The translations under genes were made by a program, and so were the position numbers. Positions 8,311 to 14,337 of a stretch of DNA of 14,337 nucleotides are shown one piece after another. The DNA lies in UHGV virus genome UHGV-1688991. The stretch is one strand, 5' to 3'. The stretch comes from a virus. Position 1 is the first letter of the stretch; each line of letters starts with the position of its first letter. Below the pieces are notes generated by a model. That model was not told where the DNA came from. It made no database searches and saw only the letters and a list, made by a program, of their open reading frames with translations.

Positions 8311-9529
8311 TGGCGTTATCCTTCTGCTTACCGGCTTTACTGCCATCGGAGGGTTTCGTGGTCATGTTCATCGGTGTGAGATAGACATCCCCACCGGGAC
8401 GCGGATTCATATCTTCCAGGTCGCGGCAGTCATTGGGAGAGTAAATTCCCCAGTTGATACCGGTGGCGTAGGCTTCAAAACGGGACTTCATATCCCCGCG
8501 CAGTAACGCCCCGGCGTTAAATTTGGCGTAATAAACGCCCTGCTTACTTTTTCGTACCAGTCCGGTGTTGATCCGCTGCTCAATGCGGGTCAGATACGGC
8601 ACCAGTGAATAGTTGATAAATCCCAGCCCCAGCTCTTCGATATTGTTGAAGGTGGCGCGATCGGTGTTCTGCACCATGTGCAATGGCACCCGGAACAGAC
8701 GACAGATTTCTTCAAGCTGAAACTTGCGGGTTTCCAGGAACTGGCTGTCCTCGGCGTTCAGCGCCATCGACTTCCAGTCCAGCCCCATCTCAAGGATCAT
8801 CGGGCGGTGAGCATTGCCAAGCCCGGTGTGACGCTCCTCAAAATCTTTCTTCAGGCGCTCATAAGCCTGATCTGACAGCGTCTGCTCTGTACGCAACACA
8901 CCCGACGTCACCGCGCCATTGCTGAACAGTCTGGCCCCGTGCTCTTCGGTCGCTGCCGCCAGCGATATTGCCTCGCGGGCATAGGCGATGGGATTCAGCC
9001 CCACCAGTCCGTCCATCGTCAGCGTGCGCACATGCCAGATATCCTCCTGGCTCAGTACATCCGTGGAGCCATCCGGGAATGTGACCTGATAGACCGGCTC
9101 CCAGCTACTGTTAAGCTTCGGTACCACACAGCCGGGATCGACGGGCAGCAGTTCAGCCACTTCGCCAAATGCTTTCACTTTGTAGGCGTAAAAGTTTCCC
9201 CGCAGGCACAGACAGGTGACCACCAGCTCCCAGAACTCCTGCGGCGTCATATAGCCATTGGGATGCGTGGAGATCAGCTTATGCAGACGTTCACCAGTGG
9301 CTCTCTGCTTCAGGCTGCCGTTCAGGTGATACAGGTTGCAGGGCAACATCCCGACCGACTCCGCCAGCACCCTGACACAGGAAAAAACCGCCGTCAGTCG
9401 CATGGCCCGCTGGCTGCTGATCTGCTTTCCGGTATAGGTGTCGTAGGACAACCCGATAGCATCCGCCAGCTCTGCTGGCGTGGTCACCGGTGCGTCACTT
9501 TTTCGTTGAAATAATCCCGAAAAGAACAC
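8288..9529 (-). CDS. Portal protein, HK97 family
   Basis: 413 aa; characteristic size and position after terL. GTG start at 9529 with SD GGAGGT 5 nt upstream. Confidence 0.9.
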   Translation of the reverse strand: MFFSGLFQRKSDAPVTTPAELADAIGLSYDTYTGKQISSQRAMRLTAVFSCVRVLAESVGMLPCNLYHLNGSLKQRATGERLHKLISTHPNGYMTPQEFWELVVTCLCLRGNFYAYKVKAFGEVAELLPVDPGCVVPKLNSSWEPVYQVTFPDGSTDVLSQEDIWHVRTLTMDGLVGLNPIAYAREAISLAAATEEHGARLFSNGAVTSGVLRTEQTLSDQAYERLKKDFEERHTGLGNAHRPMILEMGLDWKSMALNAEDSQFLETRKFQLEEICRLFRVPLHMVQNTDRATFNNIEELGLGFINYSLVPYLTRIEQRINTGLVRKSKQGVYYAKFNAGALLRGDMKSRFEAYATGINWGIYSPNDCRDLEDMNPRPGGDVYLTPMNMTTKPSDGSKAGKQKDNANADETTS

Positions 9530-9711
9530 TATTTACCTCCGCCGACAGACGACTGTGTACGGTCGAGATATCGCGCCACCAGCCACGACCAGAACAGGCA
9601 CAACGCCCCGGCAACAACAAACCCCGCCGGGGGATAAATCAGCCAGGCACCATACGCCAGCAAAAGCGCCCCCAGCACGCCCACCAGAGGCGCGAGAATC
9701 AGCATGATCAT
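9529..9711 (-). CDS. Small hydrophobic membrane protein (60 aa, two predicted TM helices)
   Basis: [67 protein letters not shown] lies 4 nt upstream of ATG 9711. Its TAG overlaps the portal GTG by 1 nt. Confidence 0.5.
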
Positions 9712-12072: not shown

Positions 12073-12423
12073 TCACTTCAACCGTTCACGGGCCGTCTTC
12101 GCCTTATGACACGGCCAGCACAGGCTCTGCAGATTACTGTCGGCATCAGAGCCGCCATGCGCTTTAGGGATGATGTGATCAACGGTTTTCGCTTCACGCA
12201 CCACACCGGCACGCAGACATAACTGACACAGGCCTTTGTCACGCTTCAGCACACGCGCGCGGATAACGTCCCACTTCGAACCATAACCGCGCTGGTGACG
12301 GGACTGACCTGGCTTGTATTGCCTCCAGCCTTCGCTTTTGTGGCTTTCACAATAGCCTGACGGATCTGTGGTGGTATGGCGGCAACCGCGAACACGGCAG
12401 GCTTTTGGGATTCGTGGCGGCAT
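12073..12423 (-). CDS. HNH endonuclease, terminase-associated
   Basis: 116 aa; N-terminal Cys cluster (CRVRGCRH...C) and C-terminal DHIIPKAHGG...NLQSLCWPCH HNH motif. Positioned immediately upstream of terS. Confidence 0.85.
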   Translation of the reverse strand: MPPRIPKACRVRGCRHTTTDPSGYCESHKSEGWRQYKPGQSRHQRGYGSKWDVIRARVLKRDKGLCQLCLRAGVVREAKTVDHIIPKAHGGSDADSNLQSLCWPCHKAKTARERLK

Positions 12424-12835
12424 ATGTACTAATCTCCGATTTATCCAAATTTCACTGCCATAATGCCGACATTCTCTGCCATTATTGGCTCCGTTTATCC
12501 GTTAAAAGGGATATCAGTTAAGTTATCCCGTGTAGGGTATAAGCCATTGTCGAGACCACTCATTGAATGGTCTCTGCAATAACCGATGTCTTTCCATCAG
12601 TCCGCCACCACAAAGAATCTTTTTTGCCATAAGGCAGGAGGTTCATCTTTCAGTGGCTGCCAGTGTTATTTCCCCACTTACTGGCTTGGGTTGCTTCGTG
12701 GTACTGCCGTTAACTGGTGGCGCACAGATTTAGTTAAATCTGTTCTCGCATGATCCAGCTTTTACATACCCGGATTGTGGGGATGCAAATCACGGTTTCA
12801 TTATCAAGCCCACCAGTAGATGGGCTTTGTAATGG

Positions 12836-13093
12836 CTACTTCGCTTTTGCTTCCGCTCGCTTACGCCGGCGCTCTTCTTTCCTCTCGGCTTTTGCCATGT
12901 CCATGAATGCCTGCATGATCGAGTTCCGCATCATGTAGCTAACAAAGTGATGATTGACACAGCCGTTGAGGCGCAGCTGCTCGCCAAACTCATCCACCGA
13001 GGCCAATGCTTCCATCATGCCCTTCTCGCCTTTCATGAACTCTGAGAAGTCGCGCCCCGCTCTGGAGGCGCATTCAATAACACGATCACTCAT
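12836..13093 (-). CDS. Hypothetical protein (85 aa), translationally coupled to the KilA-N gene
   Basis: ATGA start/stop overlap with the upstream gene at 13090-13093. Highly charged C-terminus (ERKEERRRKRAEAKAK). No family recognised. Confidence 0.5.
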   Translation of the reverse strand: MSDRVIECASRAGRDFSEFMKGEKGMMEALASVDEFGEQLRLNGCVNHHFVSYMMRNSIMQAFMDMAKAERKEERRRKRAEAKAK

Positions 13094-13587
13094 CCCGGAA
13101 GCCCGGGGATCGTAATCTGCAGCTGGTTAGCCAGGGAGTTAATCTCAGCGACCAACACTGGCTTCGTATAGCGCCATGCTGCCAGCCCTTGTCCGCAGAA
13201 GCTCGCCATGTCTTTCTTCTGGTCAAACTCATGACATTTCATGTTGAGCTGCGCACTTAAGCTGTTGCGATGCTGAAGTTCTCCGGTGAAGTAGTCATCG
13301 AGGACTTTATAGGCCGCGTACTTGAACCCGGGGTTTAACCAAGCCGCATAATCGTAAGCAACAAACTTCCCGCCATATGTTCCACCGTGTACACCGCGCT
13401 CAGTAAAAACCACAGATTCGTGGTTTTTCTCCAGCTCGGCTAAGAACTCTTTGGTCTGCTTGTTTCGCAGGTAGTGGTAAGGCGATTCAGATTCACTTTT
13501 ACCACTGGCTTTCCACATATCAGTGAGGCAGATCATTCCTGATTCATCAACACGGATCGGTGTATTAAAAAGCGTGATTGCTTTCAT
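13090..13587 (-). CDS. KilA-N domain protein (antirepressor-like)
   Basis: The N-terminal ~100 aa match the KilA-N pattern (...ICLTDMWKASGKSE...RGVHGGTYGGKFVAYDYAAWLNPGFKYAAYKV...). Start set at ATG 13587 (SD AGGT upstream); the track's longer ORF from 13656 has no SD. Confidence 0.6.
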   Translation of the reverse strand: MKAITLFNTPIRVDESGMICLTDMWKASGKSESESPYHYLRNKQTKEFLAELEKNHESVVFTERGVHGGTYGGKFVAYDYAAWLNPGFKYAAYKVLDDYFTGELQHRNSLSAQLNMKCHEFDQKKDMASFCGQGLAAWRYTKPVLVAEINSLANQLQITIPGLPG

Positions 13588-13738
13588 AGCGTCTTTACCT
13601 TTTAGAAAGATGAGCCTGTTCGCACAGAAAAGCCGCCCCGAGATGGTCGCCACCATATACGGCAGTTCTCAGGCTCAACTTTCTGAAAGGCTCGGGTGAT
13701 GTAATATGCGCGTGAGATGCGCTGTGAAATTCAGATGT

Positions 13739-13762
13739 AAAAAAAGCCCCGCATCGCGAGGC
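13739..13762 (-). terminator. Rho-independent terminator downstream of Rz/Rz1
   Basis: The minus-strand RNA would form GCCUCGC-GAU-GCGGGGC (7-bp stem with one G-U pair) followed by UUUUUUU. It lies 33 nt after the Rz stop. Confidence 0.55.
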
Positions 13763-13794
13763 TCATTAAATGGACTTTGTGATTTGCAAAAAAA

Positions 13795-14337
13795 TTATTT
13801 CAGGCATTGCGTCCTGATGTATTCCTGCAGGTAGTTAACCTGCGCGGTTATCTTGTCGATTCCACTTCGGAGACGGTAATAATTGAGTTCAGCATCTGCT
13901 GTAAGTCCTGGGCTTTCTCCATCGCCCATGCCGCTGGCTCCGGTCGTTGACTTTGCACAGGTGGCGGCGACTTGCAGGCGCTTACGCCCAGCAGAAACAT
14001 CAGCACGGAGACTTTCGATAGTCGCGTTAGCATCAGCAAGCTCCTTTGTGTATCTTGCGTCGAGTTCTGCTACATCACGTTGACGCTTCCGCATGTCAGC
14101 GATGGTGGCGTTCGCCTTCTCCAGTTCACTGGCCTTGTTATCGCGCTGCTCTTTGTAGGCGATTGCGTTATCACGGTAATGATTAACAGCCAATGACAGG
14201 CAGAGGGCATTCTTCACACCATCCTCATCCACATGAGTCGTAATGTAATCGGCTACCTGCTTCAATTCATCACCAGCATTGCCCATTGCTACACCTACAC
14301 CTGCCTTCTTGATGATAGAGATGTCGTTGCCGCCATC
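13795..14337 (-). CDS. Rz: Chimeric ORF, 5' end outside window: Cof-type HAD hydrolase C-terminal segment fused in frame to an Rz-like i-spanin lacking its TM anchor
   Basis: From about 14200 downward the protein aligns with lambda Rz along its length ([10 protein letters not shown]...YTKELADA...GRKRL...). Upstream, the same frame reads [45 protein letters not shown], the C-terminal motif of Cof/YidA-type HAD phosphatases. The frame is open to the window edge. Confidence 0.6.
13848..14033 (-). CDS. Rz1: Rz1-like o-spanin lipoprotein, embedded in the Rz frame
   Basis: In the +1 frame inside Rz. Signal peptide with lipobox (LLGVSAC) followed by a Pro-rich region ([13 protein letters not shown]). 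ATG 14033 has SD AAGGAG 7 nt upstream. Confidence 0.7.

Follow-up and report, generated by a model that had tools for sequence, protein, structure and literature searches.

A KilA-N gene and its 85-aa follower behind a structured leader at a variable accessory locus of enterobacterial temperate phages

The window analysed here is a stretch of 14,337 nt from the phage genome UHGV-1688991, in which all genes lie on the minus strand. Its subject is a pair of overlapping genes, the first (gene 1, 13090..13587) encoding a protein of 165 amino acids (aa) with KilA-N and ORF11CD3 domains and the second (gene 2, 12836..13093) a protein of 85 aa. The pair is a common cassette that has already been catalogued, as hkbK and hkbL of phage HK620, and its function is not callable from sequence. 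The analysis adds three points: the 85-aa gene is a one-sided follower of genes of the Bro network, the protein it encodes is, on profile matches, homologous to the N-terminal module of T5orf172 proteins, and a single leader RNA unites a hypervariable locus. We tentatively propose, with slightly less than even confidence, that enterobacterial lambdoid/P22-like phages have, in their late operon, a hypervariable accessory locus of which the window carries one allele, and that this allele encodes a translationally gated late DNA-binding regulator and a coupled small partner.

The gene pair and its setting

Taken mechanically, the open reading frame (ORF) of gene 1 spans 13656..13090 and encodes 188 aa. 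Translation probably begins at the ATG at 13587..13585, giving a protein of 165 aa (MKAITLF...); RefSeq and the HK620 annotation use the same start, AAAGG stands before it, and the sequence on its 5' side is that of a conserved non-coding leader. Pfam places a KilA-N domain (PF04383) at residues 7–101 (E = 6.6e-16, 58.5 bits against a cut-off of 23.8, profile positions 6–106 of 107) and an ORF11CD3 domain (PF10549) at residues 109–161 (50.5 bits against a cut-off of 25, full profile, positions 1–54). The initial annotation had recognised the first of these but missed the second; both are listed as Bro-network domains (PMC10111431). The protein is 100% identical to those of HK620 and phage Dewey. 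Antirepressor domains (P22_AR_N/P22_AR_C, ANT) are found by Pfam in neither protein of the pair, PDB sequence searches with both gave no match, and no functional study of hkbK/hkbL, of ORF11CD3 or of Rha was found in the literature. The sole link to antirepressors is a distant homologue of the 85-aa protein, P0122, whose gene lies inside an Arc/Arc/P22_AR_N (immI-like) region.

The ATG of gene 2 overlaps the TGA of gene 1 as ATGA at 13093..13090, confirming the arrangement of ORFs first described, and no good Shine-Dalgarno sequence precedes it in the window. The 85-aa protein had been described as a partner of no recognisable family with a basic tail. Pfam and NCBIfam indeed offer no family for it, but PHROG 875, for which no function is annotated, matches it over its full length (E = 3.2e-54, positions 1–85 of 85) and, as set out below, it is homologous on profile comparison to the N-terminal domain of T5orf172 proteins. 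Structure prediction with AlphaFold2 (18 sequences) returns a compact three-helix bundle (helices at residues 3–20, 26–42 and 48–84) with a mean predicted local distance difference test (pLDDT) of 92.4, the last predicted helix running on into the basic C-terminal tail, KAERKEERRRKRAEAKAK. The ratio of non-synonymous to synonymous substitution (dN/dS) for the gene is 0.06–0.29, measured against homologues at 54–96% aa identity. Given this ratio and the confident model, the 85-aa ORF is a real gene and not a chance ORF.

It might nevertheless be argued that a frameshift has split a single longer gene into the two ORFs, given that the match of gene 1 to PHROG 129 is confined to positions 3–174 of a 273-position profile and that both frames are read through as one fused protein in a database entry, P0001. 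This explanation, like the suggestion that the 85-aa ORF is spurious, can be regarded as effectively refuted. Long KilA-N proteins, such as those of mEp235 and HK022 (242 aa from the likely start MSNIIPIDF...), end in a P63C domain that is unrelated to the 85-aa protein, and the 85-aa gene still follows them; we therefore do not regard the ORF as a C-terminal portion broken off a longer KilA-N protein. The two-ORF layout, with its 85-aa gene, is moreover present at 471 places in E. coli, and both the dN/dS values and the compact, confident model speak for a gene of its own.

The family is tiny. When 1.84 billion representative proteins were searched with a profile, 19 clusters were returned, and a word-indexed search for the 85-aa protein gave 138 proteins, the source names among the matches listed being all from Enterobacterales. 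A candidate zinc site (C8, C45, H48 and H49, invariant in close homologues) was rejected, its residues being lost in P0122 and in the T5orf172 fusions. P22 orf80 was likewise rejected as a homologue, as it is a DUF2560 (hkbM-like) protein, and a tblastn search for a homologue of the 85-aa protein in P22 gave no match.

The pair is flanked by the Rz spanin gene (14286..13795) upstream and by an HNH endonuclease gene (12423..12073) downstream, the latter being followed in order by genes for a P27-type small terminase, large terminase, portal, protease and capsid (HK97-type). The initial annotation had placed it between the lysis and packaging modules at a classic moron position, behind a terminator and ahead of about 410 bp of non-coding DNA, and most of this stands. 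The slot is a recognised accessory one, and an intrinsic terminator (13764..13744; 9-bp stem, 6 of its pairs G-C, then TTTTTTT) lies 3' of Rz and forms the 5' boundary of the cassette; a terminator is found at the same position in nearly all cassette copies, the stem sequence differing in some. Measured against the usual picture of a moron, the pair is inserted between lysis and packaging genes, but its terminator lies upstream and not downstream and the hairpin at its 3' side has no U-run. The 412 nt (12835..12424) between the pair and the HNH gene hold no minus-strand ORF of at least 40 aa and no coding sequence in the RefSeq annotation; they are not inert, however, as they contain a homologue of the P22 small non-coding RNA (sncRNA) P22G.

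A structured leader before exchangeable genes

The roughly 150 nt from the terminator to the start of gene 1 are conserved across cassettes with different first genes and at different genome positions. In the window they comprise a structured 5' leader RNA (13588..13740, minus strand) made up of a small hairpin, P0 (~13722..13708), and a long imperfect rod (~13691..13597), at the base of which GCCUUU (13691..13686) pairs with the Shine-Dalgarno sequence AAAGGU (13602..13597). The minimum free energy of the window leader is -51.1 kcal/mol (z = -3.1), and none of 200 shuffled sequences was as stable. Diverged leader variants fold alike independently, and variant B (the window carries variant A) possesses an extra 5' ACCUGC that pairs with its differing Shine-Dalgarno region, GUAGGU.

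Covariation supports this structure. In a MAFFT alignment of 15 sequences, 79.7% of cells are paired, against 38–52% in slid controls, and 16 of the 38 pairs show double changes (6–11 in slid controls). An alignment of 39 distinct sequences based on a covariance model gives compensatory changes at 25/38 pairs, against 6–13 in slid controls, a value reached by none of 500 shuffles; being fitted to the model this second alignment leans towards the structure, and the MAFFT result is the more conservative of the two. The covariance model matches the window at 13582–13740 with 157.9 bits. Rfam, by comparison, has no match at gathering score over the whole window, and at E ≤ 1 a single spurious snoRNA match between 12300 and 13900.

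A pattern scan for one leader helix recovered at least 120 viral contigs, and the leader directly follows an Rz-like gene in 83 of 121 instances. Further copies were located at L099 1337–1491, L003 1832–1971, L090 2533–2683 and L074 984–1131, the covariance model also places the leader before ST104 orf45, and a weaker form of it lies directly after a Q gene and terminator, before an HNH/AP2-like gene. The genes found behind it are of Rha+ORF11CD3, Rha, KilA-N, KilA-N+P63C, T5orf172 and ANT/KilAC types, the Rha-type alleles sharing with gene 1 the ORF11CD3 domain and an ...IPGLP(G/K) ending. The locus thus has the hallmarks of the Bro network, namely an N-terminal DNA-binding module joined to exchangeable C-terminal modules, with alternative architectures in one slot. 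What is constant is the frame: a terminator after Rz, the ~150-nt leader, a swappable Bro-network gene and, often, a P22G-like region.

In some copies an HNH-type, homing-endonuclease-like gene sits exactly between the leader and the KilA-N gene, as in phage Dewey (L003, 1966–2517) and Scandinavium (L090, 2678–3229), and such a gene is also present at L074 1126–1638. About 35 nt of the ribosome-binding-site region are duplicated at these insertions, and a related HNH gene follows a leader-like element immediately past the Q gene. It is possible that homing is directed at the leader DNA.

RNA sequencing of P22 infection, reported in 2026, detected two sncRNAs that bear on the locus, P22F and P22G, both listed without known function (PMC13397905). 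P22F is 89 nt long and ends 6 nt before the start of rha (ORF201), and P22G is located downstream of ORF201 (PMC13397905). Over its nucleotides 1–81, P22F is 100% identical to variant B of the leader, the form found ahead of most KilA-N plus 85-aa cassettes. The variant A leader of the window gives no blastn match to P22F, the two being alike in structure with little sequence in common. The rha locus of P22 resembles that of the window in the succession of Rz, terminator, leader, a single Bro-network gene and a P22G-like region; it differs in that the gene is of Rha type and the leader of variant B sequence.

Two candidate sites were set aside. A promoter candidate in variant A picked out by eye, TTCACA-16-TATTAC, is not conserved in variants B or C, and a possible LexA box, CTGTGCGAACAG, has the wrong spacing, as judged by eye only.

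The extreme diversity of domain-shuffled proteins within one frame could be taken as a sign that the locus is an arms-race arsenal directed against host defences, resident prophages or satellites, and the pair a counter-defence or inter-phage conflict effector. The location of the locus in the late operon of temperate phages fits such a role, as does the prominence of Bro-network proteins in the satellites known as phage-inducible chromosomal islands (PMC10111431), and a KilA-N-like domain is found in the prophage abortive-infection protein BstA (PMC8585504). Like gene 1, BstA is a prophage accessory protein with a KilA-N-like N-terminal half, and its second domain supplies the activity; it is, however, ~300 aa long, its gene adjoins that of the repressor and its C-terminal domain is unrelated. 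We regard a conflict effector as improbable, as neither protein of the pair shows sequence or fold similarity to known defence or anti-defence proteins and the diversity could equally reflect shifting DNA-binding specificities of regulators.

The 85-aa gene as a follower

At all of the 80 IMG/VR loci that encode an identical 85-aa protein, a KilA-N+ORF11CD3 gene ends exactly at the start of the 85-aa gene. More broadly, the 85-aa gene lies directly behind a Bro-network gene in all contexts examined, these loci together with HK620, the Shiga toxin (Stx) phages, mEp235/HK022, Klebsiella RAH1 and others, with upstream partners of three classes: KilA-N+ORF11CD3, KilA-N+P63C and Rha. In mEp235, HK022, Scandinavium, Raoultella and Trabulsiella, the partner is an unrelated KilA-N+P63C protein of 242–251 aa, with a stop codon 2 nt before the 85-aa ATG, whilst the gene for P0122, which shares 57% identity with the 85-aa protein, overlaps a 234-aa Rha-family gene by ATGA. 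The leader, gene 1 and the 85-aa gene are found together not only after Rz but also in the tail module of Klebsiella RAH1 and of a Raoultella contig, from which it follows that the unit moves as a block.

The survey of gene neighbourhoods that had been set beforehand as a check of co-occurrence gave a clear answer in this direction but fails in reverse. Only 2 of the 121 sampled leader-bearing loci have the 85-aa gene, and D3 orf11, the origin of the domain name, and ST104 orf45, both distant KilA-N+ORF11CD3 relatives (~26% identical), are without it. The association is one-sided: the small gene is an obligate follower of Bro-network genes, and most KilA-N and Rha genes at the locus do without it. 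In HK97 (38403–38564; H99/H100; P0116) the 85-aa gene is truncated, HK97p61 having 77 aa with the frame lost past residue ~54, and therefore appears to be dispensable in that phage.

A check on remote homology, also proposed at the outset, brought out a relationship of the 85-aa protein to one part of certain T5orf172 fusion proteins. A profile search identified a 164-aa protein, P0132 (E = 5e-5), of which the first ~60 residues align with the 85-aa protein and the remainder is a T5orf172/MUG113 domain; its gene adjoins a KilA-N+P63C gene and an Arc/Arc/Bro-N region. Two more clusters of T5orf172 fusions (161–162 aa, PHROG 4284) lie behind the same leader as the pair in the window. The matches are reciprocal, the 85-aa protein matching PHROG 4284 (E = 4.3e-6) and the fusions matching PHROG 875 over residues 2–60 (E = 2.7e-9 for P0132 and 1.4e-6 for a 161-aa fusion), and R11, L40, G44 and F50 are invariant in the joint alignment. 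On this evidence the helical core of the 85-aa protein and the N-terminal domain of the T5orf172 fusions encoded at this locus are homologues, and the 85-aa protein has no T5orf172 domain of its own.

The cassette is widespread. The 85-aa gene is present in 427 of 5,426 complete E. coli genomes, and in 57 phage records that include Stx1/Stx2 phages, HK022, HK97 (in truncated form), mEp phages, Salmonella and Klebsiella phages and others; the window region itself is 99% identical to E. coli prophages. A close parallel, with the same genes, is HK620 (AF335538 / NC_002730), where both hkbK and hkbL are 100% identical at the protein level, the cassette lies directly after Rz, and 97% nucleotide identity extends over ~1.3 kb, spanning the leader, both genes and ~350 nt of downstream DNA. 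HK620 is, however, a P22-like headful packager in which hkbM (DUF2560) follows the cassette, whereas in the window the HNH gene and terminase genes of HK97 type do so. The HK620 record gives no function to either hkbK or hkbL. Cassettes with 99–100% protein identity to the E. coli version also occur in PP818812.1 (Actinobacillus phage vB_Apl-pPE4, 19509–20068) and in a contig of a Candidatus Nanosynbacter metagenome-assembled genome (L087), which suggests contamination, mis-binning or chimeric assembly in these two records.

Downstream of the pair, 9 nt past the gene 2 stop, lies a stem-loop (12806..12827, minus strand; AAGCCCA-ucuacugg-UGGGCUU) that has no U-run and was not called as a terminator by the terminator scan. 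It marks the 3' edge of the block common to most cassette copies, homology between copies typically stopping at cassette nt 997–1009, ~37–49 nt beyond the gene 2 stop. The P22G homologue within the spacer (12567..12719, minus strand) shares 93% identity over 155 nt with the published sequence. Such a region follows a single Bro-network gene in 44 of the 121 leader-bearing loci; it belongs to a flank common to many phages and not to the two-gene block, and its fold is no more stable than that of shuffled sequences (z = -1.4). Compared across loci L007–L086, the spacer after the 85-aa gene (12424–12835 in the window) is a mosaic, a segment at cassette nt ~1010–1071 being absent from some copies and blocks at ~1072–1211 and ~1216–1323 being shared in varying combinations, with the 85-aa protein 100% identical throughout.

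Two further small features were seen in the window. On the opposite strand, over the 3' end of the 85-aa gene, there are a promoter-like hexamer pair (12892–12919, plus strand) and a 62-aa ORF (12750–12938, plus strand); both are probably due to chance, as promoter-like sites are fewer in the scan than expected from shuffles. Between the large terminase and portal genes, a 60-aa ORF (9529–9711, minus strand) corresponds to the RefSeq small protein YmfR of a near-identical E. coli prophage.

A possible mode of action

How might such a locus work? Late transcripts would require antitermination by Q in order to pass the terminator at 13744..13764. The rod of the leader would then hide the Shine-Dalgarno sequence, gene 1 being translated only once the rod had been opened or processed, and ribosomes ending at the UGA of the ATGA overlap would reinitiate on the 85-aa ORF, so that the product of gene 2 would depend on that of gene 1 and never exceed it in amount. 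The KilA-N protein would serve as a late DNA-binding regulator, possibly antirepressor-like, and the 85-aa protein, a free-standing copy of the T5orf172 N-terminal module, as an accessory subunit or modulator in the same pathway, perhaps in a physical complex with the KilA-N protein. No characterised Bro-network member is known to possess a small coupled companion of this kind.

There is a precedent for parts of this scheme in the antQ-isrK-orf45-anrP-isrJ region of Gifsy-1, where an antirepressor-like gene is transcribed but translationally silent through leader structure and is activated via coupling (PMC4825925). As in the window, the gene follows a terminator and has small RNAs on either side, and coupling in Gifsy-1 relays translation from an upstream ORF. 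The order is different, however: the small ORF precedes anrP, whereas the small ORF of the window follows gene 1, and no sequence or Rfam similarity to IsrK/IsrJ was found in the window.

A number of observations weigh against a gated regulator with a coupled partner. That the Shine-Dalgarno sequence is sequestered is predicted from thermodynamics, and P22F could equally be a degradation or processing product, given that it ends 6 nt before the rha start codon. A scan of the coding strand found no conserved sigma-70 promoter in the leader, so that expression in the lysogen is not supported, and if an antirepressor appeared only in the late phase of lytic growth, it would be useless against the repressor of its own phage. 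Modelled as one chain without an alignment, the two proteins gave an unusable result (pLDDT 47.7, predicted template modelling score 0.28), and no homology or experiment gives a biochemical activity to either KilA-N+ORF11CD3 proteins or the 85-aa family. Finally, the 85-aa protein is still 96% identical where gene 1 has been swapped for an unrelated KilA-N+P63C gene, with the mosaic junction 15 nt inside the 85-aa gene, and the 85-aa gene is also found behind a Rha protein that has no Pfam domain in common with either KilA-N partner. This near-constancy across partner swaps, together with the Rha partner, argues against a tight, specific interface with the product of gene 1.

The last two observations are those that would be expected if the 85-aa protein were an independent hitchhiker with a target of its own, whether nucleic acid or host protein, that neither binds nor regulates the KilA-N protein. 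Its location behind Bro-network genes would then stem only from a weak ribosome-binding site of its own and the borrowing of gated translation from the gene upstream, in keeping with the poor Shine-Dalgarno context of its ATG in the window; the homologous domain, moreover, acts in cis with a T5orf172 domain and not with KilA-N. Set against this, the upstream neighbour is always of Bro-network class in the contexts examined, both genes relocate jointly to unrelated genome positions, and even the T5orf172 fusion P0132 adjoins a KilA-N+P63C gene. We consider a hitchhiker unlikely, though less so than either the conflict effector discussed above or the toxin considered next.

A further possibility is that the pair resembles a toxin and its antidote, the KilA-N protein being harmful, the 85-aa protein tempering or neutralising it, and the leader silencing the toxin by hiding its Shine-Dalgarno sequence. 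KilA of phage P1 is reported to be lethal, and gene 1 shares 30% identity with it over residues 11–127, the KilA-N domain. Domains are swapped around a constant position in the Bro network as at this locus, but P1 KilA has a different C-terminal half and its gene belongs to the region for plasmid replication. Tight gating of translation is a usual feature of toxic genes, coupling gives a fixed stoichiometry, and a small gene that is never without a Bro-network gene in the contexts examined suits a modulator; Gifsy-1 anrP/AntQ again offers a precedent (PMC4825925). Yet most alleles of the locus are without the partner, among them the ~26% identical KilA-N+ORF11CD3 protein of ST104, and a specific antitoxin would hardly be expected to serve three unrelated partners with one and the same sequence. 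Neither protein has a toxin or antitoxin family match in Pfam, NCBIfam or PADLOC, the last giving weak matches only, including a short one, at the level of KilA-N, to the candidate PDC-S22. We think a toxin and antidote as doubtful as a conflict effector, and continue to favour, tentatively, a gated late regulator with a coupled accessory partner.

Whichever of these holds, the main value of the analysis lies in context. The post-lysis slot of many temperate phages of E. coli, Salmonella and Klebsiella, including Stx phages, holds exchangeable KilA-N, Rha, ANT and T5orf172 proteins behind one covarying leader. That leader appears to block translation, and so offers a concrete, testable way into the large set of phage proteins described as "antirepressor-like", and its structure provides a structural rationale for the two P22 small RNAs reported in 2026. 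A bolder reading, in our view no likelier than the toxin or the conflict effector, is that the leader is an undescribed cis-regulatory RNA switch that gates Bro-network effectors of phage–phage, phage–satellite or phage–host conflict, with the 85-aa protein as a portable targeting module that redirects or licenses the upstream effector. Were this to be true, the leader, so far known only as the unexplained sncRNA P22F, would represent a new class of RNA switch, and the targeting module would be one that is fused elsewhere to a T5orf172 nuclease-like domain.

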